63,637 nt of DNA from Candidatus Woesearchaeota archaeon (GCA_964418095.1 CAYQKM010000004.1:1-63637); one strand, 5' to 3'. Shown: positions 13,027 through 62,080, numbered from the stretch's first letter. The notes: a model not told the origin generated them from the letters alone. A program made the numbers and translations.

Positions 13027-13088
13027 ATCAACTCAAATTACAACCAGTTTATAAATATTGTTTGAATTACAAATATATATTCAGGATA

Positions 13089-41681: not shown

Positions 41682-42896
<1,215 letters not shown>

Positions 42897-44610: not shown

Positions 44611-44662
44611 ATATACTTTAATTTATCTTAATCTTTTTATACTTAATATTATTTCAAATTTT

Positions 44663-45637
44663 ATGGAACCAGTAAAAGAGGCATTTCATAAAGTAAAGCA
44701 AGACATGAACACATTAAAGGAAGAATTAGATTCATTAAAAAATGAATTATCTGGCACAAGAGAACAGCTAATTGAGATGTGTGAGATACTTAAAACAATC
44801 GTTAAGAATCAAACCCCCCAACTCCCCCAACCCAACCAAGTTAATAACACCCAGCTACTAAAAAAAAACAGGTTAGAAAATTCTCTGGATAGCAGTTCTC
44901 CCATATATATTTCCCAAGAGAGGGTTTATTCTCCTTCCCAAAGACAAGCCCAACACACTGATTTCATTCCAAATCAATTAGAAAATCAATTAGAAAAATC
45001 TGCCATTTACCCCCCAAATCATCATCAAAATTATCATATTCCACAAGATTCATTAAATCCAACACTCCAACACATAATTCCAACACATAACCAACAATCT
45101 CTTACAACTCCAACACATAATTTTCCTTACAGCCCCTATAAAGCCCAAAATTCCATACTTTCCACAGGAAACGGAGGGGTTCCAACAGACAGACAGACAG
45201 ACAGACAGACAGACCAACAGACAAATAAAAGTTCGTATAATCTTGGAAATATCCCCTTAAATGAAAAGAGATATTTAAATAACAATTTCTCTAATCCACA
45301 AGATTCAATTCAAAATGCTACCTTAATATTAGATTCATTAGATACACTCAAAAAAGAAATTAGATTGAAATTTAAGAGGCTAACAGAGCAAGAGTTCTTA
45401 GTCTTTTCTATAATCTATCAGTTCTCAGAAACAAAAGGATCTACAACCTATAATGATATCTCTTTAAAGATAGGTTTAACTGAAAGCTCAATTAGAGATT
45501 ATGTTGGAAGATTGATAAAAAAAGGGATTCCCGTCGAGAAAACAAAGATAAATAACAAATCTATTGCACTTTCTATTTCTCCAAATTTAAAGAAAATAGC
45601 TTCATTAGAGACTATTTTTCAATTAAGGGCATTATAA
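44663..45637 (+). CDS. coiled-coil / low-complexity / C-terminal winged-helix protein (family member 1)
   Basis: The track ORF starts at 44567, but the plausible ATG is at 44663 (MEPVKEAFHKVKQDMNTLKEELDSLKNEL). The middle is Pro/Gln/His/Thr-rich with TDRQTDRQTDQQT. The C-terminal wHTH reads LTEQEFLVFSIIYQF...YNDISLKIGLTESSIRDYVGRLIKKGIPVE. Confidence 0.6.
   Translation: MEPVKEAFHKVKQDMNTLKEELDSLKNELSGTREQLIEMCEILKTIVKNQTPQLPQPNQVNNTQLLKKNRLENSLDSSSPIYISQERVYSPSQRQAQHTDFIPNQLENQLEKSAIYPPNHHQNYHIPQDSLNPTLQHIIPTHNQQSLTTPTHNFPYSPYKAQNSILSTGNGGVPTDRQTDRQTDQQTNKSSYNLGNIPLNEKRYLNNNFSNPQDSIQNATLILDSLDTLKKEIRLKFKRLTEQEFLVFSIIYQFSETKGSTTYNDISLKIGLTESSIRDYVGRLIKKGIPVEKTKINNKSIALSISPNLKKIASLETIFQLRAL
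45185..45214 (+). repeat. perfect tetranucleotide microsatellite (ACAG)7 + AC inside CDS 44663..45637
   Basis: Counted base by base from 45185 there are seven ACAG units and then AC. In the gene frame the tract reads TDRQTDRQTD. Confidence 0.95.
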
Positions 45638-45939: not shown

Positions 45940-46563
45940 TTACTCATTTTTTCTTTGATTCTTCCCCTTTTTTTGTTTTCCAACCCTCACTTTTGACTTT
46001 TTTAGTATTTTTTCCTTCATTTCCTCCGAAATAAACACTCTTTTTCTGCCATTCTTCTCAATACTCTCTTCTATCAAATCCTCACTTTTAGATTTTATTG
46101 CATTTATTTGGCCTCTTATTGTACTCTTCTCCTTCCCCAAGACCGCTGCAAGATCATCATAACTTAGCTTCATATCAGAATTTAATAGAATCCATAGTAT
46201 TGCTCTTTCTGTTACTGAAAATTGCTCTAAATTCGGTGTTTGAACACCTGTTTGAACACCTGTTTGAACAGCATAAACAGCTGTTTGTTTGTCAGGCAAC
46301 AGGCTGTTTGTTTTAAACAGCTGTTTGGGTTTTAATTGATTCATAATTGAAAGGACATTTTTCATTCCATCTATTTCATTTTTTATCGACGATAAACTCT
46401 CTTTTATCTGATCTATTTCTCCTTTTTGTATATTTCTTTCAGACTCAAGGTGTTTAATCCATCCTGTTAAAGAAGCAACATCTTTTTTTACAGAGTCAAA
46501 TCCTATTTTTGTCTCCTCTTTTATCTTCTTACTCTCTTTTTTCCAAGAAAACCAACCAAACAT
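45940..46563 (-). CDS. coiled-coil / tandem-repeat / C-terminal winged-helix protein (family member 2)
   Basis: It has the same architecture as 44663..45637. The coiled coil reads FDSVKKDVASLTGWIKHLE...IDQIKESLSSIKNEIDGMKN. It then has VQTGVQTGVQT, a wHTH (FSVTERAILWILLNSDMKLSYDDLAAVLGKEKSTIRGQINAIKSK) and a basic tail. Confidence 0.6.
   Translation of the reverse strand: MFGWFSWKKESKKIKEETKIGFDSVKKDVASLTGWIKHLESERNIQKGEIDQIKESLSSIKNEIDGMKNVLSIMNQLKPKQLFKTNSLLPDKQTAVYAVQTGVQTGVQTPNLEQFSVTERAILWILLNSDMKLSYDDLAAVLGKEKSTIRGQINAIKSKSEDLIEESIEKNGRKRVFISEEMKEKILKKSKVRVGKQKKGKNQRKNE
46235..46270. repeat. 12-bp tandem repeat x3 (GGTGTTTGAACA / CCTGTTTGAACA x2) inside CDS 45940..46563
   Basis: It is in frame (12 nt per unit) and encodes VQTGVQTGVQT on the minus strand. 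Each unit contains the TGTT..AACA dyad. Confidence 0.9.
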
Positions 46564-47854: not shown

Positions 47855-50800
47855 TCAATATCCATTAATAATATCATATATTTTTTTTCGGTCTTTTTCA
47901 GGAAGCCTTTTATAAATCTTTTTTATATCCTTATAGAGTCTCATTATTGTTTCTCTATCCCACCTGCTTTTAGCTTCTTGATACTCCTCCACTAGCCCAT
48001 AAATATCTTTTTTATCTATCTTAATTAGGACATCATTTATCTCCTTATAAAAATAATTTCTTGTTTTGTAAGGCAAGACAGGATAAATTTCCTTTATTTT
48101 ATAGTATTTTGCTCTTGCCCCCTCAATGTCTTTTTCTTTTAGTGATTTGTTTATTTCTTTAATTAAGTCAATCACTCTTGCCACATTAGGCTCTTTTTTC
48201 CAACCCCTCATTTTGAACTTTTTGAAAACAATTGGGGCAATTGTAAAAAGCACAACCAAAAACATAAATAAGATTACAATATAAATTGTTAAACCACCAG
48301 AAAGCCCCCCAAGCACAAAATATCCTGTAACTCTTGTTTTAATATTAGTTAAGTCATCTTCAAACAACATTGTTTCAGTATCTTCAATGTCTTTTAACTT
48401 TACAGATTCAGATATATAATAAATTATTTCATTGTTTTTAATGTCTTCTTGCTCTATTTCAAACAGATTTCCCTTTCCTTTTCTTTCACTATCTGTAATA
48501 AACACTATATTTTCTTTATTTTTAAAAAGGCTTTCTGGAATAAATTCCAGGATACTTCCACGAGAGTTTTCTCCAATTTTAACTTTCTTTGTAACTAATA
48601 TGAATTTTTGAGTTCCATTAGCATATTCTATCTCAACTTCCATGGCTTCTGAAGAAACAGATATATCATTTTGCATCTTTTTATTTATCTCCACCGATTT
48701 TCTTAAAGAAGCTCCTTTCAAGATCGTGTTTGTAGATGAAAAATACTCTTCAATTATCTGCTTAAAATCCCCACTTATACTGTTTTTAACATATTCGTAG
48801 TCTTTATTTACTTTGACATTTAATGGAATTTTTGTTCTTATAGATTCAAGCTCATTCAAATAATCTTCTGTTTTCTTTTTTCTCAAGCTTTCGCTACCAA
48901 CATACTTATAATTCTCTTGAAAAAAGTTTTGTATATCTAAAAGCCTTTTTTTATAGTATTTAGTTTCTTCTAAAATATTAAGTTTTTCCAAAACCTCTTT
49001 TTCCTTTAAACTATAATTTGAAGTTAGAACCTTATCTGCAAGCTCTTTTAACTTATCTACTTCTTCTTTAGAATCATAATATAAATCAGAGTTATTTGTA
49101 ACATTATTTAAAATAACCTGAAATATTGAAGCATTTAAATACTCGTTAGAGGAGTTATCAAAACACTCTACTTCCCAAAGGTAAATACCCTCTTCAAAAT
49201 CTGTTAGCATAACTACAACATTTTTATTATTTTGAACTGAATCATTGTTCGCTACAGATTTATCTTTAGAAGTTAGAGGAAATACTAAATTAGATTTGTT
49301 CCATGTGCAGTGAGTTAATGACGAGCATCCATTATATATTCTAAGTGAACAGTTTTTAATTTTAACATCATCACTGGCCCTGTATGTGAAATTTATTGAA
49401 TTTACATAAATTATTTGTTTTGAATAGGGTTTTAAGAGGGTAATGTCTGGGGCACTTTTATCTTTATTTGTTTGTCCAGTTACATTTAACTCACTTTGCT
49501 CAATTACATTTAATCCATTTTTTTGAATAATAAAATTCTCCCCCCCCATAATCATATTCAACTTAAGAGTATAATTGCCTTCTTGAGTATATTTTCTTGT
49601 AAATATCTTGTTAAATTGCAATGTGTTAATATCCAAATAAGTAATATTTGAATTTCCATCCCCATAATCTAAAATAACATGGGTTATATTCTTAAAAGGA
49701 GAGGTTATATTAGCAGTAACCTTAACAGAACCATCTTTTTTAATAGATGTTGCATTTAGACTCAGGTTTGCACTTGCAACAGAGAAATTAGTTAGTAGAG
49801 TATAATTTGGAGCAGGCTCATCAAATATTATCTTTAAGGCATAGTTTCCATCTCCCTTTAAGATAGATTCATTCATTATAAAAGATGCAGAGTTTGCATA
49901 ATTTCTACTGTAGATTATATTGTTCTCTCCTTTGATTATTTGAACAGAAAAATTTGAAGGGGCACTTGAATTAATTATTATTGTTTCACTGTTTAGTATT
50001 TTATTTTGGGTTAAATCTAAAAAATATAACTTTCCTTCTTTAAGAGAAGAGTTAAAAGTTTCATTTATTGAAAATGAGCCCAAACTTGCATTTGTCACAG
50101 ACTTATTCGAGGGATCTAAACATACTACCCCCCAATCATAATCTCCATTGGGCAAGTTTAAATTATAACTCTCATTTGAATTGAAAATTTCTTCAAAATT
50201 TTCTCCTATGCCTCCAACTTGAAGATTACAAATAAATTCTTTTGAATAATTCACGCTTATATTAAATAAAATGGGGTTTCTTACATTTCCAATAGGACCA
50301 GAAACATTCAAGAGTAAACTCTCTTCTTCAGAACCCTCTTCTTCAGAATTATTTATATTATTTAATTCTATAACTACCCTAAATATCTGCTCACTTAGGT
50401 GGGGAACAATCCACGAAACTTTCTCAATTAATCCATTGTCGTCTTCATCATAATACTCAACACCATATTCATCGAATAAAGTGATATCTATTCCTTCCTG
50501 ATTTTCCCAATAGATTCTTATATCTTTCTTTTCAGATTCTTGAGTTAAATCAATGTAAATTCGTAATTCTTTTTCAAAATGCTCTTCACTTGAAATAATC
50601 ACCTCTTTTTCAAATTCATTCTTTTTTATATCTTGTATTGGTTTCAAATTTTCACTAAGAAATTTCCAATCTTCTTCAATACAGTTTATAACTTCTACCT
50701 TCTTTTCCCCATTAGGAGAGTGAGAATATAATAAACAGTAATCTGTGCCCAAATTAATTTCTGGATTTTCTTCTTTTTCTTCAGTGTTTTCTGAATCTTT

Positions 50801-51115
50801 TTGGGAATTTTCTTTAGAAATATCTGACAAATTAATATACTCAAATTTTTCATTAGAAAAGCTCTCGTTTTTTGAATCGTCTGATTCAAATTTATCTTCG
50901 GAATCGCCTATCTCAATTTCATTTTCAAGCTCTCCACTATCTTCAGAGTATTCTCCCGTAGGTGGAGAGGCAGGATTATCTTCGACATTCTCTGGATTAT
51001 TACTCACACCATTTGAGTCATCAGGAGGGGAGGAATTTACCTGGGGTGCAATTAAAATTATAAATAAAATTGCTAAGAAAAAGATGAATAATGTGTTTAA
51101 AAATCTCTTATTCAT
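47855..51115 (-). CDS. giant surface protein: signal peptide, acidic linker, Ig/PKD-like repeats, C-terminal TM anchor, 122-aa cytoplasmic tail with duplicated tail motif
   Basis: 1086 aa. The signal peptide is MNKRFLNTLFIFFLAILFIILIAPQVNS. A PKD-like block reads VILDYGDGNSNITY...YTQEGNYTLKL. There are dozens of N-x-S/T sequons. The TM reads GLTIYIVILFMFLVVLFTIAPIVF. The tail (47855-48223) contains ...ARAKYYKIKEIYPVLPYKTRNYFY... and ...MRLYKDIKKIYKRLPEKDRKKIY... Confidence 0.7.
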   Translation of the reverse strand: MNKRFLNTLFIFFLAILFIILIAPQVNSSPPDDSNGVSNNPENVEDNPASPPTGEYSEDSGELENEIEIGDSEDKFESDDSKNESFSNEKFEYINLSDISKENSQKDSENTEEKEENPEINLGTDYCLLYSHSPNGEKKVEVINCIEEDWKFLSENLKPIQDIKKNEFEKEVIISSEEHFEKELRIYIDLTQESEKKDIRIYWENQEGIDITLFDEYGVEYYDEDDNGLIEKVSWIVPHLSEQIFRVVIELNNINNSEEEGSEEESLLLNVSGPIGNVRNPILFNISVNYSKEFICNLQVGGIGENFEEIFNSNESYNLNLPNGDYDWGVVCLDPSNKSVTNASLGSFSINETFNSSLKEGKLYFLDLTQNKILNSETIIINSSAPSNFSVQIIKGENNIIYSRNYANSASFIMNESILKGDGNYALKIIFDEPAPNYTLLTNFSVASANLSLNATSIKKDGSVKVTANITSPFKNITHVILDYGDGNSNITYLDINTLQFNKIFTRKYTQEGNYTLKLNMIMGGENFIIQKNGLNVIEQSELNVTGQTNKDKSAPDITLLKPYSKQIIYVNSINFTYRASDDVKIKNCSLRIYNGCSSLTHCTWNKSNLVFPLTSKDKSVANNDSVQNNKNVVVMLTDFEEGIYLWEVECFDNSSNEYLNASIFQVILNNVTNNSDLYYDSKEEVDKLKELADKVLTSNYSLKEKEVLEKLNILEETKYYKKRLLDIQNFFQENYKYVGSESLRKKKTEDYLNELESIRTKIPLNVKVNKDYEYVKNSISGDFKQIIEEYFSSTNTILKGASLRKSVEINKKMQNDISVSSEAMEVEIEYANGTQKFILVTKKVKIGENSRGSILEFIPESLFKNKENIVFITDSERKGKGNLFEIEQEDIKNNEIIYYISESVKLKDIEDTETMLFEDDLTNIKTRVTGYFVLGGLSGGLTIYIVILFMFLVVLFTIAPIVFKKFKMRGWKKEPNVARVIDLIKEINKSLKEKDIEGARAKYYKIKEIYPVLPYKTRNYFYKEINDVLIKIDKKDIYGLVEEYQEAKSRWDRETIMRLYKDIKKIYKRLPEKDRKKIYDIINGY

Positions 51116-51314
51116 TTTGCTTACCCCGCTTAGATTTACTAACCAAATATCCCTCGTTATACAACCAGAGAGTTATTATCTTTCCAACAACATCTTGCTC
51201 ATTATTTCCAATAACTCCAATCAGTTTTCTTATCGCTTCTTTTTGGTTTAAAGGTATTGTCCCTTTAACTGTAGAGCTTTTATGTTTGGCATCATTTAAG
51301 TCCTTTTTAGGCAT
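51108..51314 (-). CDS. small ribbon-helix-helix (CopG/Arc-like) DNA-binding protein
   Basis: The track ORF extends to 51395, but the plausible ATG is at 51314. MPKKDLNDAKHKSSTVKGTIPLNQKEAIRKLIGVIGNNEQDVVGKIITLWLYNEGYL fits a beta-strand plus two helices. Its stop overlaps the start of the giant gene by 8 nt (ATGAATAA). Confidence 0.5.
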   Translation of the reverse strand: MPKKDLNDAKHKSSTVKGTIPLNQKEAIRKLIGVIGNNEQDVVGKIITLWLYNEGYLVSKSKRGKQNE

Positions 51315-51427
51315 TATATAATAATAATAAAGTACTTTATAAAGGTTTTTATTTTCTTGTGTTTTTTTAAGAAGATTTAAATAAATAGGTTGCAATCTTC
51401 ATATAGGGAGAGGATTAAAAAAAGCAC

Positions 51428-53437
51428 GTGAAAATCTTGTTTTTATCAAAGAGAGAAAATTTTTTATTGTTTTTTTTATTTGTAATTTTAATTTTTTTAA
51501 GATTTACTTCTGCTGAAGTTGGAACTACCTTGGAGATTATTAATGCCCCCCCATATTTAATCAAAGATATACCAGATCAAAGTTGGCCAGAAAATGAGAG
51601 CTTAATTGATGCATTTGATTTAGATGAATATTTTGGAGACCAAGAGGGAACCCCCCTTACATATTATAATTCTTCAGTTTCCGGAATCTATGTTGAAATA
51701 AACCCCATAACCCACACTGTTTCATTTTACCCTGCTCCAGGATTTTCAGGAAAAAGAGAGGTTACATTTTATGCTTCAGATTCAAAATACGATTCTCCAA
51801 GTAATGTTGTAACACTTTCTGTAGGACTAGATAAAGAGCCGCCGAAATGGTTTTTTCCAGGTATAGATAAAGAAGTCATTTATCAAAGCGATCTGGTAAC
51901 ATTCACAACAAATTGGACAGATGATAGAAATCTTAAAGAGTTTATTTTTTCAATAAATCAGGGAGCAGGATGGGAAAATTATTCTTCCACTTTCTTCTCA
52001 GGAAAAGAAAATATTTCATCATCAAAAATACAGATTAGAGCTCCTGCATTTAATATTGTTTATTGGAGATATTATGCATCAGATAGTTCTGGAAACATAA
52101 ACGTTACTGATATACAAAGCTTTACAGTTTCTCTTAAAGAAACTGGTGAAGGGCCTGGAAGCGGGAGTAATAATAAGACTTCAGGGGGATTATCTAACCT
52201 TTTTCAGAATGTAGATGTTTCAAAAGCAAGAAAAATAGAAGATTTCCAAATTAACATCTATGAACTTAGAGTTCAATTAAAGCAAGGAGAATCTAAAACG
52301 AGGTTATTAAAAATAACTAACACTGGACTTGAAGAGATTTTTATTAATCTCTCATCTCCTAAGCTACAAGATTTTGTAGTTTTCAGTTCATCCTCTTTTT
52401 CTCTCCCTTCAGGAAAATCAAAGGAGATTGCTTTAGATTTCCACGCTAAAGACAGAACAATCCCCGGACAATATTTTGGATATATTACTCTTAGCTCTCG
52501 CAATGTAAGTAAGTCCATTCCAACAGTGCTGGATATTCAAGGGATAAATTTAGAATTTGATGTAACTTTAAATATTTCAGAAGAATATAAGATAGTTAAG
52601 CCTGGAAAAGAAATCAAAGTAAACATGACTTTGAAAAATTTAAAAGACCTTAAAGACACAAAAATATCTCTTTACTATGCAATAAAAGATTATTTCGGGA
52701 CAGTTTATAACTTTTCAGAAGAAGATGCAACCCTTTTTTCCACACTTTCTCTGGAGAGAACATTACTTGTTCCAGAGGGAACACCCAAGGGAAAATATTT
52801 AGTCTATGTAAGAGCCTCAGATGATAAAAATATTGCAATAGACTCTGTAGAATTTGAAGTAGGAACAAAATTTAGTTTTTCTTCATTTATAAAAATAGGC
52901 TCAATATCTCTTTTAATTACAATCTTTGCTTTATTTTTAGCTATCTTAATGGTTAAGCGTAGAAAGGATAAAGAAAAAGAAAGAATCTTAGAATTATACA
53001 TTTTATTAAATAAATTAAAATCTTTAATAAAACAAAATAAAGAAGACGAAGCTTTAGATCTTTTCATAAAGATAAAAAAAATGTATCGGGAACCCCTCCC
53101 AAAAGATATATTTGATGATAAAGAAAAATTAAAAAAAGAAATATCTCTTTTATATGACAGTTTTTTAAAAGACAAAAATATATCTGAATTAAATAAAAAT
53201 GTCTCAAAAAATTTAGTTGCTCAACACCCACCTGCAAATAAAAACGAGAAACCTTTCTCAGATAAATCTCTTGAATTTTTACAAGAACAAAGAAAAAAAG
53301 GACTAACAGACTCCCAAATAAAAAAATTTCTTTTAAATAAAGGGTTTTCAGAGGAAGAAGTTGGAAAAATATTTAACTCCTTAAACAATAAATCAAATAT
53401 AAACAACCAGGTTAAAAAAAGAGACAAAAAAATTTAA
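51428..53437 (+). CDS. large surface protein: signal peptide, Ig-like domains, TM anchor, cytoplasmic tail with tail motif and KG[LF][ST]xx[EQ][IV] helical repeats
   Basis: 669 aa. It apparently starts at GTG, has no in-frame ATG in the signal peptide, and has GGGAGAGGA 16 nt upstream. The signal peptide is KILFLSKRENFLLFFLFVILIFLRFTSA. The TM reads ISLLITIFALFLAILMV. The tail (52955-53437) contains EDEALDLFIKIKKMYREPLPKD and KKGLTDSQIKKFLLNKGFSEEEVGKIFNSL. Confidence 0.65.
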   Translation: MKILFLSKRENFLLFFLFVILIFLRFTSAEVGTTLEIINAPPYLIKDIPDQSWPENESLIDAFDLDEYFGDQEGTPLTYYNSSVSGIYVEINPITHTVSFYPAPGFSGKREVTFYASDSKYDSPSNVVTLSVGLDKEPPKWFFPGIDKEVIYQSDLVTFTTNWTDDRNLKEFIFSINQGAGWENYSSTFFSGKENISSSKIQIRAPAFNIVYWRYYASDSSGNINVTDIQSFTVSLKETGEGPGSGSNNKTSGGLSNLFQNVDVSKARKIEDFQINIYELRVQLKQGESKTRLLKITNTGLEEIFINLSSPKLQDFVVFSSSSFSLPSGKSKEIALDFHAKDRTIPGQYFGYITLSSRNVSKSIPTVLDIQGINLEFDVTLNISEEYKIVKPGKEIKVNMTLKNLKDLKDTKISLYYAIKDYFGTVYNFSEEDATLFSTLSLERTLLVPEGTPKGKYLVYVRASDDKNIAIDSVEFEVGTKFSFSSFIKIGSISLLITIFALFLAILMVKRRKDKEKERILELYILLNKLKSLIKQNKEDEALDLFIKIKKMYREPLPKDIFDDKEKLKKEISLLYDSFLKDKNISELNKNVSKNLVAQHPPANKNEKPFSDKSLEFLQEQRKKGLTDSQIKKFLLNKGFSEEEVGKIFNSLNNKSNINNQVKKRDKKI

Positions 53438-53438
53438 A

Positions 53439-55793
53439 ATGAAAATTCTAAAAAAGTACTTTTTTGTTATTTGCATTTTCTCGCTTATGCTGAGTTTTTC
53501 CTTAATTGTGAGCGCTTCAGAGAATTCTGCATTTGGAGATGAAATAAAAAAAGAGTATTATTCTATTTCAAGAGACAAAATTGACAGAGTTGTGGCTCTT
53601 GGAACATTATTCCAGGATTTTATAACTATTGAAAATTTTAACACAAGATCTCTTTTTGTAAGCTTTTCAGTTTCAGGAGCAGCAGCCAACTTTATAGAAT
53701 TTGATTACTCGGGAATAGAGATTCTTCCTGGAGAGAGTTCTTCTTTTTATTTTTACATTAAAGGGGAAGAGGAAGGGTCATATATCGGAGAGTTCTCTTT
53801 ATCTGGAGGGGCCACAGAAAAAATTCCAGTTACAATAAAAATTATTAATTCTGATTTAAACCCAATATTTTTTATAGACACCGAACCTTTTAAGAAAACA
53901 TTTAATTTAAATGAAGATTTGAAATTTAAAATTTATCTTAATAAACTAAAATCTGGACCAGCAGAAAATTTAACAATCTCTTATTATTTAAACAATACTA
54001 AAAACGAATCATTTTTTTTAGGAGAAGAATCATTTAACTTTACAAACTCATTTTACTTAGTTAGAAAATTTAAAATACCTCAAGAAGCGGATAAAGGAGA
54101 TTATATTTTGCAAACAACAGCTACTTATTCAGGAGACTCAATTTTTTCTTTAAGTCGGTTTATAATAAAGAAACCTTTTTTTAAGATTCTCTTATTTGGA
54201 TTTTTACCTCTTTGGGCATTATTTTTAGGATTGGGGACAATTTTGTTATTCTTGCTAATATTCTTTTTAATAAGGAGAAAAATTAAATTATCAAAAAAAT
54301 ACAGAATGGAGCTTGATACAAAAAAGCTTCCTACTCCCAGTAAAGAGGTCTTGGTTTTAGGAAAAATTGCCGAGACTAAAATAAAAGCTTGCTTAGAACC
54401 TGAAAAATTGAAGATACACACAATTGTCGCTGGAGCTACTGGTGGAGGAAAAAGTATTGCTGCTCAAGTAATAGTAGAAGAAGCTCTTCTAAAAAATGTT
54501 GCAGTAATTGTTTTTGATCCAACAGCACAGTGGTCAGGTATGCTTAGAAAATGCGAAGACAAAAAAATGATTTCCTATTACCCTAATTTTGGATTAAAAC
54601 CTACAGATGCAAGGGCTTTCTTTGGGAATATAAGACAGATATCTCATGCCAGAGAAATTATTGATGTGAATAAGTTTATTCAGCCAGGACAAATACAGAT
54701 ATTTGCGTTAAATAAATTAGATCCAAATGATATGGATATTTTTGTTGCGAGTGTTATAAGGCAAATATTTAAGTCTGACCCAAAAGAAACCCCTGATTTA
54801 AAAGTTCTTTTAGTTTTTGATGAGGTTCACAGGTTACTTTCAAAATTTGGAGGTAGCGGAGAAGGATTTTTACAAATAGAAAGAGCATGCAGGGAGTTCA
54901 GAAAATGGGGAATTGGAGTTATGTTGGTCTCTCAGGTATTAAGTGACTTCGTTGGAGAGATAAAAGCAAACATTAACACTGAAATACAAATGAGGACAAG
55001 GGACGAAGGAGATTTAAAAAGAATAAACACGAAATATGGAGAAGAATTTTTGCAATCACTTGTTAAGGCATCAGTAGGGGTGGGAATGTTTGTAAATACT
55101 GCATACAACAAAGGTAGACCGTATTTCATAAACTTTAGACCCATCCTTCACAACACACGAAGACTTTCAGACGAGGAGTTAGAAAAGTACAATAAATATA
55201 ATGATATAATTGATGACTTTGAAAATCAAATAAATCAGCTTGAAACAGAAAAAGTAGACATATTTGATTTGAAGATGGAATTAAAACTGATTAAGGATAA
55301 GCTAATGACAGGAAACTTTTCAGTTGTGGATATTTATATCGAAGGCATAGCACCAAGATTGCAAAAACAATGGGAAAAAATAGGAAAGAAGCCAAAAAAA
55401 GTGGAGAAAAAATTACTAGACGAATCTGAATTAAAAAAATCATTAGAAGAAGCAAAAAAAGCAAGAGAAATTTTTGAAAAAGAAGAACAAAAGAAACAAA
55501 AAAAAGAAGAGAAAAAAACAGAAGCAGAAAATATTGGTACAAAAATACTTAAGCCTTTAACTTTTGATAATGGGATAATGATATCCACACTTAAAGAATT
55601 AAAAGATACTCTTCCAGGCATAGATAAAGAAATATTTTTGCTTCATGTGAATGAAAATAAGAATGATATCTCCAAGTGGGCAGCGCAGGTTTCAGCAGAT
55701 TTATCTAAAAAAATAGCAGCTGAAAGCGAAAAGTCAAAAATTGTTCTGATATTGGATCAATTTTTAAAAGAAGCAAGCACTAAAAAATCTTAA
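53439..55793 (+). CDS. membrane-anchored HerA/FtsK-like P-loop ATPase (DUF87-type) with N-terminal signal peptide and extracellular Ig-like domain
   Basis: 784 aa. The signal peptide is MKILKKYFFVICIFSLMLSFSLIVSA. The ectodomain is about 215 aa (SFSVSGAAANFIEFDYSGIEILPGESSSFYFYIKGEEEGSYIGEFSL). The TM spans about aa 246-278 (nt about 54174-54272). The HerA-type core has Walker A (HTIVAGATGGGKSIAAQVI...VIVFDPTAQW), Walker B (LLVFDEVHRLL) and REFRKWGIGVMLVSQVLSDF...INTEIQMRTRD. A Lys/Glu coiled coil follows, then a C-terminal LTFDNGIMISTLKELKDTLPGIDKEIFLLHVNENKNDISKWAAQV domain. Confidence 0.75.
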   Translation: MKILKKYFFVICIFSLMLSFSLIVSASENSAFGDEIKKEYYSISRDKIDRVVALGTLFQDFITIENFNTRSLFVSFSVSGAAANFIEFDYSGIEILPGESSSFYFYIKGEEEGSYIGEFSLSGGATEKIPVTIKIINSDLNPIFFIDTEPFKKTFNLNEDLKFKIYLNKLKSGPAENLTISYYLNNTKNESFFLGEESFNFTNSFYLVRKFKIPQEADKGDYILQTTATYSGDSIFSLSRFIIKKPFFKILLFGFLPLWALFLGLGTILLFLLIFFLIRRKIKLSKKYRMELDTKKLPTPSKEVLVLGKIAETKIKACLEPEKLKIHTIVAGATGGGKSIAAQVIVEEALLKNVAVIVFDPTAQWSGMLRKCEDKKMISYYPNFGLKPTDARAFFGNIRQISHAREIIDVNKFIQPGQIQIFALNKLDPNDMDIFVASVIRQIFKSDPKETPDLKVLLVFDEVHRLLSKFGGSGEGFLQIERACREFRKWGIGVMLVSQVLSDFVGEIKANINTEIQMRTRDEGDLKRINTKYGEEFLQSLVKASVGVGMFVNTAYNKGRPYFINFRPILHNTRRLSDEELEKYNKYNDIIDDFENQINQLETEKVDIFDLKMELKLIKDKLMTGNFSVVDIYIEGIAPRLQKQWEKIGKKPKKVEKKLLDESELKKSLEEAKKAREIFEKEEQKKQKKEEKKTEAENIGTKILKPLTFDNGIMISTLKELKDTLPGIDKEIFLLHVNENKNDISKWAAQVSADLSKKIAAESEKSKIVLILDQFLKEASTKKS

Positions 55794-57664
55794 TTCAAAT
55801 CATAATACAAATAAACTTTTTCACTTTCTGTTAAGTAATACTCTCTTAATCTAGAAGGAATTTTTATTTCATAATCATAAATTCCATATGCTCCTTCAGA
55901 AACCCTATTTACTTCTGTTACAAAAATTACATCTTCCTTATCTGTTTCATCAAATTCGTTATTCCCCCCATCATCAGATGAATCCCATAAAATACCTGTC
56001 ACGAAGCTAGAGCCCTCAGTAGATTCTATTACCGGGACATTTTTTATTTCTCTTTGATATATCACCATATCTTTAGTATTTTTTGGGATTTGGGAATTTG
56101 AAAATAGTTTTGAGATAGAGTCTTCAAAATCATCCATTTTTAAAAGATTATCTATCTCTAAAAAGTCATTTGAACTCTCTTCTCCTAATTTAGATCTTCC
56201 TATTGATTCCAACATCATCCAATTAATATCGCTTTCAGAGTCTGTTATAAAGATGTGCCCTTCAATTTTACTCTCATTATACCATTTTTTCATATCTATT
56301 TCTTCCCCGCCTATTATTTTGTCTAATGTAATGTTTCCATAAATTTCTTGCCAAGCATTTACTGAAATTTCTTTATTTCCTTTATTATTTAGCTTATTTT
56401 TTTCAGATATTAATTCGGTATAATCAACAATAACAAATATCTTGCTTTTTCCAATTTTAGCATGCCAAGGAATTTTAATAGATAGATTGGAAATAGCACT
56501 CATATTTACAACAACATTTCCTATCTCTTCTCCGGAATTTTCAGGATCTTCCTCAAAAAAAGATATTAAGATGTTTTCTGCTGACAAACATCCATCATTT
56601 TTAATAAACACACTTAAATTAACTTCTTCACCTTCTAGAGGGTTAGGATTGTCTAGTGAAATATCTTCCCCCCTTATAGATAATTCTGCAAAATTGGGGT
56701 AAGCATAGAGGGGTGTCGAATAAACATTATTTATATTACCCGCATTATCTTCAGCAATACAATTAAATAACCAGTCTCCTGTTTCATTTAAAATTATATC
56801 CGAATAATACTCTCTGCTCGTAATTTCCAAAGAAGCATAATTTATTATTTCACCTGAAGGGGAAATAGATTGGATTGTCACCTTATTTATTCCAGAAAAA
56901 GAATCATACGCTTTACAGACTGCCCCCACACTATCTATTTCTTCACAAGAATGGGTGATGTTTAAATGGATAGATTCAATTATTGGTTCAGATAAATCAA
57001 TCCCAAAACTATTGTTTACACTAGAGAATTTTGGTATCTTTAGAGAATCTACCACCTGGCAGGAATATTTATAGAAACCCTCTGTTAATGTTTTTGTAAA
57101 TGTTTTAAATCTTTCTCCGAATAAAACCTCTTTTGTTTCATTTAATTCCCACACTCCGCTCCAGTTTCCATAAATGCTTACTTCTTCTAAGTTTTCATCT
57201 AAATCCTTTAAAGAACAATTAAATTCTATTACATTATAATTTAGGAATGAACTGTCTTGAGGAAAAACCAACGAAACTTCAGGAGGAGAGTTTAAAGTTA
57301 TTCTCTCAACAACACTCTCACTATTAAAACTAACACTTACATTTGTCTCTTTAGAGACATATCCGTCTCCATTATCAATTATTTTCAATGTTAATATGTC
57401 TCCTGTTATGCAAGGAGGGTTAAGCAGCTCACAATCTATACTATAATTATTTTCTTGATTAGAATTTCCAAATATCCCAATAATATCACTAAGGTGGTCA
57501 TCTTCCCCATTATAAAAGTTCCAAAGCATAATCGTGTGGTTATCTGCAGGTGTAGAATCCAATGCATTTTCCACACTCCCTATGATATAGTGTGATGCAG
57601 AAACATTTCCTATTAAGAATAAGATTAGAGTAATAATTGCCCCAAATATGTAATTCTTTTTCAT
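55790..57664 (-). CDS. secreted protein with conserved N-terminal HYI-G-VENA domain (paralog 1)
   Basis: 624 aa. The signal peptide is MKKNYIFGAIITLILFLIGNVSAS, followed by HYIIGSVENALDSTPADNHTIMLWN...SDIIG..GNS...YSIDCELL..C...LTLKIIDNG..YVS.E...ITLNSPP. There is no C-terminal TM. Its stop overlaps the convergent ATPase stop (TTAA at 55790-55793). Confidence 0.65.
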   Translation of the reverse strand: MKKNYIFGAIITLILFLIGNVSASHYIIGSVENALDSTPADNHTIMLWNFYNGEDDHLSDIIGIFGNSNQENNYSIDCELLNPPCITGDILTLKIIDNGDGYVSKETNVSVSFNSESVVERITLNSPPEVSLVFPQDSSFLNYNVIEFNCSLKDLDENLEEVSIYGNWSGVWELNETKEVLFGERFKTFTKTLTEGFYKYSCQVVDSLKIPKFSSVNNSFGIDLSEPIIESIHLNITHSCEEIDSVGAVCKAYDSFSGINKVTIQSISPSGEIINYASLEITSREYYSDIILNETGDWLFNCIAEDNAGNINNVYSTPLYAYPNFAELSIRGEDISLDNPNPLEGEEVNLSVFIKNDGCLSAENILISFFEEDPENSGEEIGNVVVNMSAISNLSIKIPWHAKIGKSKIFVIVDYTELISEKNKLNNKGNKEISVNAWQEIYGNITLDKIIGGEEIDMKKWYNESKIEGHIFITDSESDINWMMLESIGRSKLGEESSNDFLEIDNLLKMDDFEDSISKLFSNSQIPKNTKDMVIYQREIKNVPVIESTEGSSFVTGILWDSSDDGGNNEFDETDKEDVIFVTEVNRVSEGAYGIYDYEIKIPSRLREYYLTESEKVYLYYDLN

Positions 57665-57668
57665 TTTT

Positions 57669-59693
57669 TCATCCTCTTTCTTTTACACTTGCTATAACTA
57701 TTTTTTTTTCTTTATTATTAAGTGTTTTGTATCTTTCTTTTGCATTATTATATAGATTTAAAGCCTCTTCCTCTTTCCCCTCATTTAAAAGATGCTTAGA
57801 TTTTTTTATGTCTTCTATGATTGTTATAACATGTTTTAAGTAAGGCTCTCTTTTTATTTTTAAAAAATAGATTACAAGTATTAAAGCAAAGAACCCTAAA
57901 ATAATTATGCCCCCCGGCCCTTTACCCCCTAATTCAAATATAAAGTTCCCAGTTATTTTTGATGCCCCTTCATCATTTCTTATTTTTATTGGGACAATTA
58001 ATATTTCCTCTGCAGAAGATGCTGTAATCTCTTTGCTGAAATAATACACTATTTTTTTGGTGCCTGAATTGAATGATAAAACTGGGTCGTCCTTTACAAT
58101 TGTATAATCTAAGTTCATCATTTTAATTCCAGAAGCTTTTTCTGAAATCTCTTTTGGAACAACCAGGATAAATTTTAATTCATCATCTTTTTCTAAGCTG
58201 GAACTAATCTCTTCTTTTAACAAACTAATAGTTTTCTTTGTACCATCAAGGTAAAGTATATTCAAAATAGAAATTTTTCCAGTTATAATAATCTTTTTCT
58301 CGCTTATTATCTTTAATATTTCATTCAGCTCTTTTTCATTATTAGATTCTGAATTAGAGTAATATTCTAGAAGAGCTATTTGCAGGTTCTTTTCGTTTAA
58401 TTCCCTGCTTATTTCTTTTTCTTCTTTAATAATAATATCCTCTGGTATTTTTTTCTTAACTATATTTATTCTGAGATTCATAGAGTCCAGCTTTTTGTTT
58501 AATTCTTCTAAACTTAAATCCTGAGATTTATAACTTTCTACATCTCTTTTAATAGAGTTTAATTCAGCTAAAGAATCTTCTATTTCTTTATCTAATTTAA
58601 TTTCACTAAATATTTCCCTTTTTCTATCTCCCCCATACCCAATAAGATAAGATATCTCCTCAACATTTGCTATTATTGTATTTATTTCAGATATTTGGTT
58701 TTCTACTTTTCCTATTAAGCTGGGATTAAGTCCTTTTACTTGAGATGAGTTTGTAATTAAAGCGGTAGCATAAACTTCTTTTGAAAGGTCTCCAATGTTT
58801 CCCGCATCATCTATTCCTGCAACTCTATAATAATATGTTTTCCCTTTTTCAACATCATTATCATAAAAGTAATCCTTTGAAGATGATTTGTAAAAATCAG
58901 TATATTCTATTCTCGGATTTTCAGATCTATACACATAAAATTCATTAAGACTTTCTTCAGAAAACCAACTTAATTTTATTTGTCCTTGATATCCAACAGC
59001 ATCAACTATATTTATTGTAGAGGGTTTTAAACTATCTACAATAAAAGAATTGTCCCCTATAATTTTAGTTCCTTCCTCCCCTGTCAAATCTTTTGCTTTA
59101 AACCTAAATGAGCACACACTCTCTCCAACAGATGCAGGGATAATTAAATTTCCTTCCCATACACTTCCCTTTCCTGTTAAAGAAATCGGTTTATACACTA
59201 TCTCATCAAAGCTATATTCTAATACTGGAGTTTCTAAACTTGTCTTGGAAGTTATTAAGCTTATTTTATATTTCCCTTCTTTGAGCGGGGGTTCTTTAGA
59301 TAATTTTATTTTAGCATAAATAGGAATACTTATCCCAAATCCAACTTCTAATTCAGAATTAGAATCTTCTCCGCATCGAATATAGTATTTGTGAAACCCT
59401 TCTTCTAAGTTTTCTATATACACCTCATGGATTAACCCATACTCTCCATCAAAATTTTTTAGAAGTGAACTTTCTGTTCTATACTCACACCTTGTCTCTT
59501 CTAAGGTGTTTATCCTCAACACAACAGAGTCTGTTTTGTATATCTTATTAGATATAATAGAACCTCCTTCGGAAGTATATTCTGCAGTTATTATTGAAGC
59601 AGACGCAGCAGAAACCTCCACAATAATTAAAGATGTAACTATTAATCCTAGAATCACCAACATTAAATTTTTATTTTTTCTATTTAATATCAT
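57669..59693 (-). CDS. large surface protein with FN3-like domain, coiled-coil stalk, TM anchor and cytoplasmic tail motif
   Basis: 674 aa. The signal peptide is MILNRKNKNLMLVILGLIVTSLIIVEVSAAS. The FN3-like block reads IKLSWFSEESLNEFYVYRSEN...KGKTYYYRVAGIDDAGNIG. The TM reads GIIILGFFALILVIYFL. The tail (57669-57860) contains EEEALNLYNNAKERYKTLNNKEKK. Confidence 0.65.
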   Translation of the reverse strand: MILNRKNKNLMLVILGLIVTSLIIVEVSAASASIITAEYTSEGGSIISNKIYKTDSVVLRINTLEETRCEYRTESSLLKNFDGEYGLIHEVYIENLEEGFHKYYIRCGEDSNSELEVGFGISIPIYAKIKLSKEPPLKEGKYKISLITSKTSLETPVLEYSFDEIVYKPISLTGKGSVWEGNLIIPASVGESVCSFRFKAKDLTGEEGTKIIGDNSFIVDSLKPSTINIVDAVGYQGQIKLSWFSEESLNEFYVYRSENPRIEYTDFYKSSSKDYFYDNDVEKGKTYYYRVAGIDDAGNIGDLSKEVYATALITNSSQVKGLNPSLIGKVENQISEINTIIANVEEISYLIGYGGDRKREIFSEIKLDKEIEDSLAELNSIKRDVESYKSQDLSLEELNKKLDSMNLRINIVKKKIPEDIIIKEEKEISRELNEKNLQIALLEYYSNSESNNEKELNEILKIISEKKIIITGKISILNILYLDGTKKTISLLKEEISSSLEKDDELKFILVVPKEISEKASGIKMMNLDYTIVKDDPVLSFNSGTKKIVYYFSKEITASSAEEILIVPIKIRNDEGASKITGNFIFELGGKGPGGIIILGFFALILVIYFLKIKREPYLKHVITIIEDIKKSKHLLNEGKEEEALNLYNNAKERYKTLNNKEKKIVIASVKERG

Positions 59694-60879
59694 GCTTTTT
59701 ACCTCTGGATTTTTCTCTTTTTATTTTGTATGCAAGATATGCGATTAAGATAATCAAGATAATATAAATCAAATAGATTTTTATTTTGTCCCATTTAATA
59801 CCAGTACCCTCTACATTAATTACTGCGCTTTTCTCAAAGGTTCTCTTACTATCATAAAATACTGCCCCGTTAACAATATATTTTCCCTCACTTTTTGGAG
59901 TAAAATAAAACTTAAAAGTTTCTTTTCCCCCAACATTAACTAAACTTCCTTCACTTTCAAGTATCTGCATTATTTTACTTCCAAGAGTTATTGCTCCTTT
60001 AAACCTAGCATTCACTGTTTTCTCCCCGACATTTTCAAATGTTGCTTCAATCAAAACAGTGTCTCCTACTTTTATTCTTGGAGGAGCGATAATGCTTAGG
60101 AGAGTTCCTTGAGATTTTAATGCGCCTTCTTCTAAAATATCAAATGTTAAAGTCTCAGATGCATAACACTCTACAGAAGTTACTTCTGCCCAATACTGTC
60201 CAATTTCAAGCCCAGAGGAACTTACAGGAATAATTATCTCTTTTTCTGTAGTTGGGATAATCATTTCTTCTGAAAATTCAACTTGTTTTACAATACCTAT
60301 CCTATCTCTATCCCAAATATCAATTTTAACAGTAGGATACAACCTAATGTTTCCCTGATTAAGTACATTTAATTTGAATAAAATATCTTCTCCTTTTTCA
60401 ACAGATTCAACTTTAAATCCCCCTGCTCTACATAAAGAATATTCCACATCTGTTACTCCCACTTCTAAATATAAATCCAATGCAGCATTTACTATTCCAG
60501 TAGCTTGCCCCTCTGCTCCTTTGAGTTTATTTTCTGTTGTAACTCTTATGAATCCAGAATAATTTCCATTAGGCATATCTAAGGGGGGTTGCACAGATAT
60601 TTTCAAATAATATGGACTTGCCTTGGATATTTCAAATTCTTTTTTTTCAAATGAAATCCACTCTGCAATATCTCCGCGGACATCTAAAATTACATTTATT
60701 GGTTCTTCTGTATCTACTGTTATTGTTACTGTTCTCTCAGAATACCCTCCCCTTAATACATCTTTAAAATAAATATTTGCAGGACTTACTCCTATATTTG
60801 CAGAAGAAATAAATGTCATAAACAAAGGTAAAACTAGTAAAATCATTCCAAATTTTAATTTATTCAACTGTTTATTCAT
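59680..60879 (-). CDS. surface protein with tandem Ig-like (PapD/NEW3-like) domains and C-terminal TM anchor
   Basis: The track ORF extends to 60897. The ATG at 60879 follows the upstream stop directly and gives the signal peptide MNKQLNKLKFGMILLVLPLFMTFISSANIG. Ig-like blocks read VSPANIYFKDVLRGGYSERTVTI...IAEWISFEKKEFEI...NGNYSGFIRV. The C-terminal TM reads IYLIYIILIILIAYLAY. Confidence 0.6.
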   Translation of the reverse strand: MNKQLNKLKFGMILLVLPLFMTFISSANIGVSPANIYFKDVLRGGYSERTVTITVDTEEPINVILDVRGDIAEWISFEKKEFEISKASPYYLKISVQPPLDMPNGNYSGFIRVTTENKLKGAEGQATGIVNAALDLYLEVGVTDVEYSLCRAGGFKVESVEKGEDILFKLNVLNQGNIRLYPTVKIDIWDRDRIGIVKQVEFSEEMIIPTTEKEIIIPVSSSGLEIGQYWAEVTSVECYASETLTFDILEEGALKSQGTLLSIIAPPRIKVGDTVLIEATFENVGEKTVNARFKGAITLGSKIMQILESEGSLVNVGGKETFKFYFTPKSEGKYIVNGAVFYDSKRTFEKSAVINVEGTGIKWDKIKIYLIYIILIILIAYLAYKIKREKSRGKKHDIK

Positions 60880-60880
60880 T

Positions 60881-62080
60881 TTAATTCTCCGGTGCATTTA
60901 CAGCACCAAAAACAATATTACCTTGACAGCTTCCGGATATATAATTCGGAACACGTATTCTCCAATAGGTTCCTTTCACAGCCTCATCTTGATTTTCACT
61001 CTTTCTATAATCTAAATTGAATGTTTCTATTTTCGGAGATGAGGTTAGATTAATATATTTTGATTCAAATTCCTCTAAGCTTATTTCTCCTCCATTTGAT
61101 TTTGTAAGATTAAATCGTTCGTACGTTACGGGGATGTTATTTGTCTCTTCTCCACTGACACAAGTCATAGCGTATCCATCCTCTTCTTGAGAACCATATC
61201 CACTTAACGACAAATTAATTTTAATATTTCCATAATTTGTAATATTTATTCTACTCTCTTTAGTAATCTCTTTGCCTTCTTCAATCTCAAAATGAATTAT
61301 AGAATCAACACCTAATGCTAAAAGAGGGTTTATAAAAGAAGTGTCACCTTTTTTAGAAACTATTGAAAAATTATCCTGAACAGAGATGGTACAATTCCAA
61401 AACTCAGAATTAGCATAATACCAGACATAGAATGCGCAGGTTATTTTCGCTTCATTTTGGGTTCCATAAGAATAGTTTATTTCACAGCTATCATTTGTAT
61501 AATGGAGATTATTATCATTAAAGTCTTCGAAATATGAATTAACACTATCAAAGAATACAGCACTTGCATTTGTCAAAGAAAATTCTCCATCATATTCTGT
61601 AGCGATTGCAGTACATTTAATCTCTTTAGTCGCGGCAGGGATTAAATCTATTTCCTTCTCCGGAAAAGGGAGATCATCTTCAATATGTATGCTCGTAATA
61701 TTTGGGGGAGAATTAAGAGTTATATTTTCCACAATATCATACCCATATCCACCAACAAGAACGCTTTTTTCTCCAGAAATATAATTGTTCCCATTATTAA
61801 CCACTTTCAATGTAAGTGTATTTGTAACATTGCATCCGCTTTTTAACATCTCACAATCAATCATATATATCCCACTTGCTTTGGAATTTCCTTCAGGCCC
61901 AATTATATCACTTACATTTTCTATTGCACCAATTTCAGTGTTCCAAAGAACTATAGAAAGTCCATTAGGACTAGTGCCATCTTTAGCATTTTCAACATAT
62001 CCTACAATATAGTGAGCAGCAGAGCACATTTGAATTACAAATATTATCCCAATTATACTTAGCAAAAACATTTTTTTCAT
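60881..62080 (-). CDS. secreted protein with conserved N-terminal HYI-G-VENA domain (paralog 2)
   Basis: 399 aa. The signal peptide is MKKMFLLSIIGIIFVIQMCSAA, followed by HYIVGYVENAKDGTSPNGLSIVLWN...SDIIGPEGNS...YMIDCEMLKSGC...LTLKVVNNGNNYISGE...ITLNSPP. It is colinear with the first ~125 aa of 55790..57664. Confidence 0.65.
   Translation of the reverse strand: MKKMFLLSIIGIIFVIQMCSAAHYIVGYVENAKDGTSPNGLSIVLWNTEIGAIENVSDIIGPEGNSKASGIYMIDCEMLKSGCNVTNTLTLKVVNNGNNYISGEKSVLVGGYGYDIVENITLNSPPNITSIHIEDDLPFPEKEIDLIPAATKEIKCTAIATEYDGEFSLTNASAVFFDSVNSYFEDFNDNNLHYTNDSCEINYSYGTQNEAKITCAFYVWYYANSEFWNCTISVQDNFSIVSKKGDTSFINPLLALGVDSIIHFEIEEGKEITKESRINITNYGNIKINLSLSGYGSQEEDGYAMTCVSGEETNNIPVTYERFNLTKSNGGEISLEEFESKYINLTSSPKIETFNLDYRKSENQDEAVKGTYWRIRVPNYISGSCQGNIVFGAVNAPEN

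Follow-up and report, generated by a model that had tools for sequence, protein, structure and literature searches.

Why several surface proteins of one archaeon should end, on the inner face of the membrane, in the same short helical sequence is the question raised by a 63,637-nt stretch of DNA from Candidatus Woesearchaeota archaeon (GCA_964418095.1 CAYQKM010000004.1:1-63637), hereafter called the window. The three proteins concerned, P1, P2 and P5, are encoded between positions 47855 and 59693, around the gene of a membrane-anchored ATPase, P3. The original prediction, made by a model reading the sequence without database searches, had proposed that their cytoplasmic tails carry four copies of one conserved motif, that this motif is recognized by a common cytoplasmic partner and that the adjacent ATPase is the obvious candidate for this role. 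The window has a G+C content of about 29% and contains archaeal replication genes at 36.4-42.9 kb (PolD DP2, DP1 and Orc1/Cdc6, as read from translations). Homologues of the window proteins come from metagenome-assembled genomes (MAGs) labelled Pacearchaeota, Woesearchaeota, Nanoarchaeia or Nanobdellota, so that the source, judged by these relatives, is a tiny DPANN archaeon.

The three proteins have a common layout. P1 (47855-51115, minus strand, 1086 aa) consists of a signal peptide, a PKD/Ig-like ectodomain with a weak Pfam match to PKD_4, a stalk (aa 685-935), one transmembrane (TM) helix and a tail in which the motif occurs twice. P2 (51428-53437, plus strand, 669 aa) has a signal peptide, an Ig-like ectodomain, one TM helix and a tail with a single variant copy, and P5 (57669-59693, minus strand, 674 aa) a signal peptide, an Fn3-like ectodomain, a stalk (aa 335-590), one TM helix and a one-copy tail. 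At these lengths, the description of the carriers as giant proteins was exaggerated. Each of them starts with a hydrophobic, signal-like segment and continues with a large Ig/PKD/Fn3-like body up to a single C-terminal TM helix; a Lys/Arg-rich stretch comes next and then the motif, the first copy lying 11-20 residues after the TM helix. As read from the sequence, the sole C-terminal TM helix of P1 lies within the hydrophobic stretch aa 932-964 (48224-48322, minus strand), which is followed by KKFKMRGWKK; the TM helix of P2 spans aa 486-509 (52883-52954, plus strand) and is followed by KRRKDKEKER; and that of P5, where a helix is also modelled by AlphaFold2 (AF2), spans aa 594-611 (57861-57914, minus strand) and is followed by KIKRE. 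Because a signal-like N-terminus combined with a single C-terminal TM helix corresponds to a type-I topology, all three tails are predicted to be cytoplasmic.

The four peptides quoted in the original prediction were recovered exactly where they had been placed, after the C-terminal TM helices. The first and second copies of P1 (P1a and P1b) occupy aa 978-1026 (48038-48184, minus strand) and aa 1038-1083 (47867-48004, minus strand), and both were assessed by exact peptide match, shuffle tests, profiles and AF2. The P2 copy, at aa 520-572 (52985-53143, plus strand), is a variant with a 4-residue insertion ('EPLPKDIF') and was assessed by exact peptide match, hidden Markov models (HMMs) and P2 orthologues, in which it is conserved. 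The P5 copy, at aa 619-670 (57684-57839, minus strand), was assessed by exact peptide match, shuffle tests and AF2, which gives it three helices. A profile search of the six-frame open reading frames (ORFs) of the window found no fifth copy.

Such a resemblance could be an artefact of composition, Lys/Glu/Ile-rich amphipathic helices being merely alike, and the consensus is indeed very rich in Lys and Glu. Smith-Waterman scores were compared with those of 2000 shuffles, which gave z values of 5.2 (P1a-P1b), 5.5 (P1b-P5), 6.3 (P2-P5) and 3.4 (P1a-P5); the P1a-P2 and P1b-P2 scores were not significant, which is a point in favour of the compositional explanation. With HMMs built by leaving out one protein at a time, each omitted copy outscored at least 998 of 1000 shuffles. 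Three further profiles, each derived from the homologues of one protein (P1, P2 or P5), were run on the 453 six-frame ORFs of the window. The P5-family profile recovered both P1 copies (independent E-values of 3e-6 and 8e-7) and, weakly, the P2 copy (0.011, the best background being 0.16), while P5 was recovered by the P1-type profile (8e-5) and by the P2-type profile (4e-4). Independent detection across families thus joins the shuffle tests against a purely compositional origin, as do the near-invariant Tyr, Tyr and Leu columns and the confident AF2 folds described below. The position of the matches argues in the same direction: in a set of 76 ATPase loci, for which one genome per GTDB species was scanned, 61 of the 62 general-profile matches among six-frame ORFs (672 kb-equivalents) lay just after a TM helix, and the Lys/Glu-rich tails of 120 ATPase homologues scored nothing. 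A clear false positive (P0113) did turn up in the database search. On balance we consider the compositional explanation refuted, with next to no probability left to it, and the claim that the similarity goes beyond composition stands, with the exception of the P1-P2 pairs. Sequence comparison strongly supports a relationship between the P1a, P1b and P5 copies; the P2 copy is, with moderate support, a divergent variant linked to the others mainly through P5. The domain can be described by the pattern A-x-x-[LI]-Y-x-x-[ILV]-x-x-x-Y-x-x-L-[SNP]-x-K-(0-4)-[ED]-[KR]-x-x-[VI]-[YF], typically 10-35 residues past a single C-terminal TM helix; P1a, P1b and P5 match independent profiles of it and P2 matches as a variant.

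To what extent the tails are conserved was best seen in the P5 family, for which 110 homologues were collected with identities down to 25%. The motif directly follows the TM helix in all 104 complete (non-truncated) homologues, at least 10 of which carry two copies. Among 109 distinct copies, A22 is found in 73, Y26 in 100, Y33 in 108, L36 in 105, K39 in 77, E44 in 74 and K/R45 in 105; the consensus further includes [LI]25, [ILV]29, [SNP]37, [VI]48 and Y49, after which comes another amphipathic stretch. Mean identity to the window protein is 0.40 for the motif and 0.43-0.51 for the ectodomain; for the eight residues leading from the TM helix to the motif it is 0.15. Since the linker varies while conservation of the motif is close to that of the ectodomain, selection appears to act on the motif, and the view of the tails as a cytoplasmic element conserved by selection is supported.

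The structure predicted for this element differs from the helix-hairpin-like motif of about 45 aa first proposed. AF2 modelling of the TM helix and tail of P5 with 57 homologues gave a mean predicted local distance difference test score (pLDDT) of 85.9, and above 90 across the motif, with the TM helix followed by helices at model residues 29-49, 53-68 and 72-85. The two-copy tail of P1, modelled with 28 P1-type relatives, reached a pLDDT of 92.9 and a predicted template modelling score (pTM) of 0.81 and forms five helices: those of the first copy lie at aa 976-993, 997-1013 and from aa 1016 onward, and the last of these continues into the first helix of the second copy (aa 1016-1050). The domain is thus predicted to be a compact three-helix unit of about 50-57 aa, tandem copies of which are joined by one long helix. 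Taken together with the conservation, we consider it very probable that the motif is a real, conserved and folded cytoplasmic domain.

This fold has no close match among known structures. A Foldseek search of both AF2 models against the PDB returned nothing significant. The top analogues of the single-copy P5 model were VPS4 MIT domains, a TPR-like protein and Tom20 (all with non-significant E≥1.4), and those of the two-copy P1 model were TPR domains, the spectrin-like part of SbsC and 14-3-3 (non-significant, E≥0.34); TM-scores normalized to the query reached at most about 0.5. No Pfam or NCBIfam model covers the motif, whether tails, whole proteins or representatives of each class of carrier were searched, and P1, P2 and P5 gave no NCBIfam match at E≤0.01. 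In the searchable literature, including that on archaeal 'dark matter' and membrane systems, we came across no description of the motif or of the cluster.

At the level of sequence, the best relative found is the J-domain (DnaJ/Hsp40, PF00226). When the profile was compared with PDB sequences, about 25 distinct J-domain chains were matched (best E 2.7e-4), profile positions 14-43 falling on helices III-IV, while the reversed-sequence control profile gave no better than E 0.47 and no consistent family. The match is short, 30 residues, and above the null, and may be convergent. Pfam DnaJ touches 9 of the 92 copies used for the main profile (best E 2.9e-4), none of them at the gathering threshold, and has no match to the window tails alone. 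The stretch A-x-x-[YF]-x-x-I-x-x-x-Y-x-x-L-S-x-x-[ED]-K-[KR]-x-x-Y of the tail domain is like J helices III-IV (F-x-x-I-x-x-A-Y-x-x-L-x-D-x-x-K-R-x-x-Y-D), and in both domains a third helix comes after two that pair antiparallel as a hairpin. Some J and J-like domains, DjlA and Pam18/Pam16 among them, are anchored in membranes. The tail could be imagined as a degenerate descendant of the J-domain that, like these, brings an Hsp70-type chaperone to the membrane or regulates it there. However, unlike a J-domain, it lacks helix I and the HPD loop and has a tight turn of 3 residues between its first two helices; no HPD tripeptide was present upstream of the motif in any of the carriers collected, the loop consensus being [KE]-G-K. 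J-domains were also absent from the top 50 Foldseek matches, and no DnaJ-like gene or true J-domain was found in 1.3 Mb of related loci. Membership of the J-domain family was rejected on the missing HPD, the scores below the Pfam threshold and the failure of the fold search to retrieve it. We consider the chaperone-recruiting explanation very unlikely; the domain may nevertheless be a distant relative of the J-domain helical core.

Other helical families resemble the tail domain in part. The compact antiparallel three-helix unit predicted for it is like that of TPR and MIT domains, and its 'G-x-x-E-E-A-x-x-L-Y' signature recalls the helix packing of both. TPR membership was rejected for want of a match at threshold (Pfam TPR_6 touches 14 of the 92 copies, best E 0.03) and for the wrong unit length, 50-57 aa (73 aa in one class of carriers) versus 34 aa for TPR (PF00515, PF13174). 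MIT domains (PF04212) were among the top Foldseek analogues but at E 1.4-6 and TM-scores of 0.44-0.51, and no Pfam MIT match was obtained. As in spectrin repeats, successive units are joined by a continuous helix in the P1 model; unlike them, the unit is about half of the usual repeat of about 100-110 aa. SbsC_spectrin-like (PF22360) touches 5 of the 92 copies and the Foldseek matches to SbsC are not significant (E 0.36-0.7); SbsC is extracellular, whereas the tail domain is predicted to be cytoplasmic. In its setting, the domain is analogous to the C-terminal domain of FimV (TIGR03504), also a small helical motif with which a single-pass envelope protein ends in the cytoplasm, although FimV belongs to another domain of life and has a different repeat. 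The FimV-type motif recruits cytoplasmic partners of a surface machine. The PGF-CTERM/archaeosortase signals likewise stand at the C-terminus of secreted archaeal surface proteins and combine a TM helix with basic residues, but they end a few residues past this helix and have a signature tripeptide before it. A sorting signal of this type was rejected, no PGF/PEF-type signature being present and the tails running about 60-160 aa beyond the TM helix as folded, conserved sequence. The domain is thus a small helical module of the TPR/MIT/J-like kind that belongs to no described family.

To see how widely the domain occurs, a profile of 92 copies (A2) was used in an exhaustive search of 1.84 billion cluster representatives, which yielded 785 matches at E≤1e-3 and 67 at E≤1e-10. 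The best 150 of the 785 were sorted by architecture; 6 were already known as P5 homologues and the other 144 were classified. TM-plus-tail proteins accounted for 72 of the 144, with 11-72 residues (median 25) between the TM helix and the first copy and copies extending to the C-terminus; 70 of these 72 have two copies, an excess due to the additive scoring, which favours multi-copy proteins. Another 29 of the 144 were short sequences without a TM helix, most likely C-terminal fragments that stem from short contigs; 4 had other architectures and 2 were false positives, of which P0113 is the clear one. The typical carrier has a signal peptide, an Ig/PKD/Fn3 ectodomain, often a stalk of about 255 aa, one TM helix, a basic linker of 10-35 residues and one or two copies reaching the C-terminus. 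The family is widespread in Pace/Woesearchaeota-type DPANN archaea. It is new, but its kind, a small helical module for interactions that sits on the tails of single-pass envelope proteins, is a familiar one. An earlier word-indexed search with the four-copy alignment had returned only two C-terminal fragments of P1-like proteins, being too insensitive for a 50-aa query.

The remaining 37 of the 144, about a quarter of the best matches, are multi-copy proteins with 3-6 copies and no TM helix. The profile scan suggested in the original prediction therefore had a mixed outcome: as to its question whether the motif always follows a TM helix, it almost always does so at the ATPase loci but not among these database matches. 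Indiscriminate occurrence in cytosolic proteins, named there as what would speak against the idea, is in part what the TM-less carriers represent, but they fall into defined families and show no scatter. Class B proteins, of about 340-460 aa, have an N-terminal domain of about 150 aa and 3-4 copies. Those of class C, of about 700-860 aa, begin with a winged helix and continue with 4-6 repeats of about 73 aa, which contain an 'LPxGF' insertion resembling that of P2, and then with true TPRs. A metagenome scan for class B loci with a 2-sequence alignment found nothing.

These soluble families are one argument for a self-associating scaffold, in which the repeats would bind each other or soluble multi-repeat proteins and form short spectrin-like rods under the membrane, clustering or spacing the surface proteins, and in which the ATPase would not be the receptor. 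In addition to the TM-less classes, the presence of 1 to 6 tandem copies, their connection through a continuous helix in the AF2 model, as in spectrin-type repeats, and the concentration of conservation at core residues are in agreement with it. At one locus (L079), moreover, a soluble 3-copy protein is encoded beside a TM protein whose tail consists of the same N-terminal domain and one copy. Oligomerization is nevertheless a supposition, neither the window nor the 76 ATPase loci yielded a soluble repeat protein, and the tight conserved linkage of P1, P2 and P5 with the ATPase would be left unexplained. The scaffold is the most serious rival, but we judge it rather improbable, at something like one chance in four.

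The tail is also not the only part that the carriers share. Positions 337-589 of the P5-family profile, next to the membrane, align with P1 aa 685-935 (E 2e-8), so that P1 and P5 have in common a whole stalk-TM-tail cassette, and their description as otherwise unrelated proteins was wrong. The same stalk of about 255 aa stands before the TM helix in at least 34 further carriers, which are 600-1560 aa long and differ in their N-terminal parts. P2 has no stalk; its aa 293-464 resemble instead aa 61-229 of the P3 ectodomain (BLASTP E 1e-4). The tail could have been inherited by P1, P5 and many other carriers as part of one duplicated cassette and act as a folded basic cap that orients the TM helix and resists extraction, with no specific partner. 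The common stalk of P1 and P5, the association of stalk, TM helix and tail in at least 34 representative matches, the basic residues flanking the TM helix and the location of the conserved positions in the core are all compatible with such a cap. Against it, the motif is present without the stalk in P2 and without a TM helix in the soluble proteins, a mere cap would need neither the near-invariant E44-K45 nor the conserved K39 and A22, and two further proteins with an anchor in this membrane, P6, encoded further along in the cluster, and the ATPase, have no motif. We consider this explanation unlikely, more so than the scaffold.

The carriers P1, P2 and P5 are encoded together with the ATPase itself. 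P3 (53439-55793, plus strand, 784 aa) matches Pfam DUF87 (42.5 bits, cut-off 23.2, E 1e-10) and HerA_C (34.0 bits, cut-off 22, E 1.7e-8), has a Walker A sequence GATGGGKS at aa 332-339 and finds its PDB relatives among HerA helicases (E 4e-6). Since it scores far below all NCBIfam equivalog cut-offs, including those of CedD and HerA, it was assigned to the HerA/FtsK superfamily and no further. Its P-loop domain is preceded by a signal-like N-terminus, an Ig-like ectodomain and a TM helix and followed by a highly conserved C-terminal extension beyond the P-loop core; the tails, the catalytic ring and this extension all lie on one side of the membrane. P3 is far more conserved than the surface proteins, with 871 homologues at E≤1e-10, the top 120 of which are all at least 52% identical. 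It does not carry the motif. A helical segment of its extension, 'LKLIKDKLMTGNFSVVDIY', was considered as a possible copy and rejected, the HMM finding nothing in 120 homologues and hhalign giving a probability of 0.6%. Some P3 homologues have far larger ectodomains, of 1100-1270 aa, with CarboxypepD_reg. The C-terminal end of P3 (aa 705-754, about 55551-55700) has stand-alone homologues near a related ATPase in locus L083 (at 11999-12130 and 12593-12742), in small ORFs of 102 and 157 aa, one of which is faintly flagged as DUF5752; these stand-alone homologues suggest that the end is a separable module.

The gene order around P3 is conserved. The stop codon of P2 lies 1 nt before the start codon of the ATPase, and where the ATPase is orthologous, with 54-82% identity, the order P1(-)/P2(+)/ATPase(+)/P5(-) recurs at near-constant spacing: a two-copy P1-type gene about 2.2-2.6 kb upstream of the ATPase on the opposite strand, a P2-type gene abutting the ATPase start and a P5-type gene about 1.9 kb downstream. 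Once the P2-type profile was added, at least one carrier was detected in 48 of the 76 loci, and a P2-type gene is directly upstream of the ATPase in about 39 of them. Dozens of Pace/Woesearchaeota genomes keep P1, P2, the ATPase and P5 together, and a P1-type carrier of one more distant genome stands immediately upstream of an ATPase that is 44% identical to P3.

Our favoured reading, to which we give about even chances as a whole, is that a folded three-helix docking domain unites P1, P2 and P5 with the ATPase in one envelope complex, and one such assembly would be the most economical explanation of the conserved cluster. The tail domain would serve, at the inner face of the membrane, in docking or assembly between proteins, and the tails would hold the anchored ends of P1, P2 and P5 in one complex with the co-encoded membrane HerA/FtsK-type ATPase. 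Contact might be direct, through the conserved non-catalytic C-terminal extension of the ATPase, or indirect, through other carriers of the repeat. Of the parts of this reading, a role of the tail domain in protein-protein interaction appears somewhat probable, whereas the ATPase itself is a rather doubtful candidate for the direct partner. Gene order is the one line of evidence that connects the tails with the ATPase.

Several observations weigh against this reading. That the tail domain binds anything, and what it would bind, we purely infer. Conservation falls mostly on heptad-like core residues (Y26, I29, Y33, L36) and therefore speaks for a conserved fold rather than for a conserved binding surface. 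Synteny among related MAGs is phylogenetically non-independent. The ATPase carries no motif of its own in any of the 120 homologues searched by HMM, and loci of paralogous ATPases are mostly without detectable carriers; such absences are soft, as P2-type copies and a weak copy in locus L068 were missed by the HMM. Conversely, no ATPase was seen within 10 kb of a distant P5 homologue (L002) or of a 1560-aa P1-type protein (L081), carriers are found beside a MoxR/vWA system in L079, and about a quarter of the best database matches are the TM-less multi-copy proteins. The possibility that the C-terminal domain of the ATPase varies together with the presence of motif-bearing neighbours gave no clean pattern and was dropped.

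Some of these loci have features of their own. In L038, L044, L046 and L058 (on the same contigs as L003, L009, L008 and L010), a second, paralogous membrane ATPase is encoded about 20 kb from the first, with an ectodomain of about 680 aa, pilin-like small neighbours and no detectable carriers. The L068 paralogue (1298 aa) ends in genuine TPR repeats, and a 1074-aa TM protein upstream of it ends in the weak motif copy. The L079 operon (2147-14001) encodes, in this order, a TM protein of 920 aa whose cytoplasmic part comprises a class B-like domain and one copy, a 1598-aa Ig/PKD surface protein, the soluble 3-copy class B protein, a MoxR AAA+ ATPase, a DUF58/vWA protein and a BatA/vWA protein. 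This operon resembles the MoxR/vWA/Ig-protein 'putative secretion system' described in PMC5898192; the window cluster does not.

Within the window, the cluster comprises further genes. A small ORF (51108-51395, minus strand; 95 aa from a TTG start or 68 aa from an ATG at 51314) overlaps the start of P1 by 8 nt. By tblastn it was found directly upstream of P1-like genes in 29 related loci, with 48-84% identity, and it is better conserved than P1 itself; no Pfam family was matched, and it is a candidate cytoplasmic regulator or partner. At more distant P1-type loci (L083-L085) the upstream pair consists of a 50-aa RHH_1 protein and an ORF of 90-94 aa. Beyond the shared motif, the distal tail of P2 (about aa 612-652; 53261-53383, plus strand) contains a helical segment, '...FLQEQRKKGLTDSQIKKFLLNKGFSEEEV...', with a weak resemblance to Pex14_N (Pfam E 0.057); only its closest relatives (L003-L006) retain this segment, other P2 relatives having low-complexity Lys/Glu/Pro-rich sequence in its place. 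P4 (55790-57664, minus strand, 624 aa) is a secreted CARDB-domain protein with neither TM anchor nor motif. P6 (405 aa, Ig-like, with a TM helix and a short basic tail without the motif), P7 (399 aa, secreted) and P8 (115 aa, secreted), at 59680-62424 on the minus strand, are the syntenic remainder of the cluster, as seen by comparison with L001. P4 and P7 (60881-62080, minus strand), both secreted without a TM anchor, have in common an N-terminal domain of 137 aa (44% identity, E 2e-29).

The 1.3 kb next to P1 (46564-47854) contain no ORF. Direct repeats are present, with AAACAGCAACAAACACCCCCCAACAGCTTCCAACAC occurring two to three times and a unit of about 82 nt occurring twice, its core TAACCTAAGTGCAAA three times; fragments recur within the neighbouring ORFs 44567-45637 and 45940-46563. 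No Rfam match was found in this segment, which may be a decayed paralogue or a regulatory region. Each of the two ORFs (plus and minus strand, respectively) encodes a protein that begins with a coiled coil and ends in a winged helix (HTH_24, 7.6e-5; HTH_11, 9e-4), the stretch between them being of low complexity and rich in Gln and Thr (QTDRQTDRQT or QTGVQTGVQT). Further upstream, a minus-strand row is formed by the PolD large subunit (36413-39877), the small subunit (39949-41667) and Orc1/Cdc6 (41682-42896); an AT-rich tract of ATT/CTT repeats (43149-43273) adjoins orc1 and is a possible replication origin. An ATPase of the type II/IV secretion family (T2SSE; 22536-24824, minus strand, 762 aa) adjoins a 726-aa membrane protein (20247-22427, minus strand) in a pilus-like locus (20247-24824) without any copy of the motif; a class C repeat protein is encoded upstream of a T2SSE gene in L082. 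A 92-nt tRNA at 6666-6757 (minus strand) was found by Rfam and missed by ARAGORN, so that an intron is probable, and a tRNA-Ser(GGA) at 2406-2487 (minus strand) was found by ARAGORN and is not in the Rfam gathering list.

Pace- and Woesearchaeota are abundant, uncultured, ultra-small archaea, whose envelope biology is, to our knowledge, mostly uncharacterized. If the tail were a structural cap and nothing more, the present finding would be that of an ordinary new domain of unknown function. As a docking domain, it would be one of the few handles on how an envelope complex is assembled, clustered or energized in these organisms, the more so as it is kept beside a very conserved membrane ATPase with an ectodomain of its own. 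A wider picture, which we put forward as a speculation with small chances of being right, is that miniature spectrin/J-like three-helix units specific to DPANN archaea build a sub-membrane adaptor layer, in which the tails of many different adhesin-like surface proteins and soluble multi-repeat proteins interlock and couple the surface to ATPase machines in the cytoplasm, of the HerA/FtsK type here and MoxR elsewhere. If true, this layer would be part of the apparatus by which ultra-small, probably host-dependent archaea organize or power their contact surface. In practical terms, the A2, A8 and P2-type profiles together mark type-I surface proteins, and their topology, in largely 'hypothetical' genomes, and the tail domain is a small, soluble bait for interaction studies. 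It thus makes a tractable starting point for studying the envelopes of uncultured DPANN archaea.

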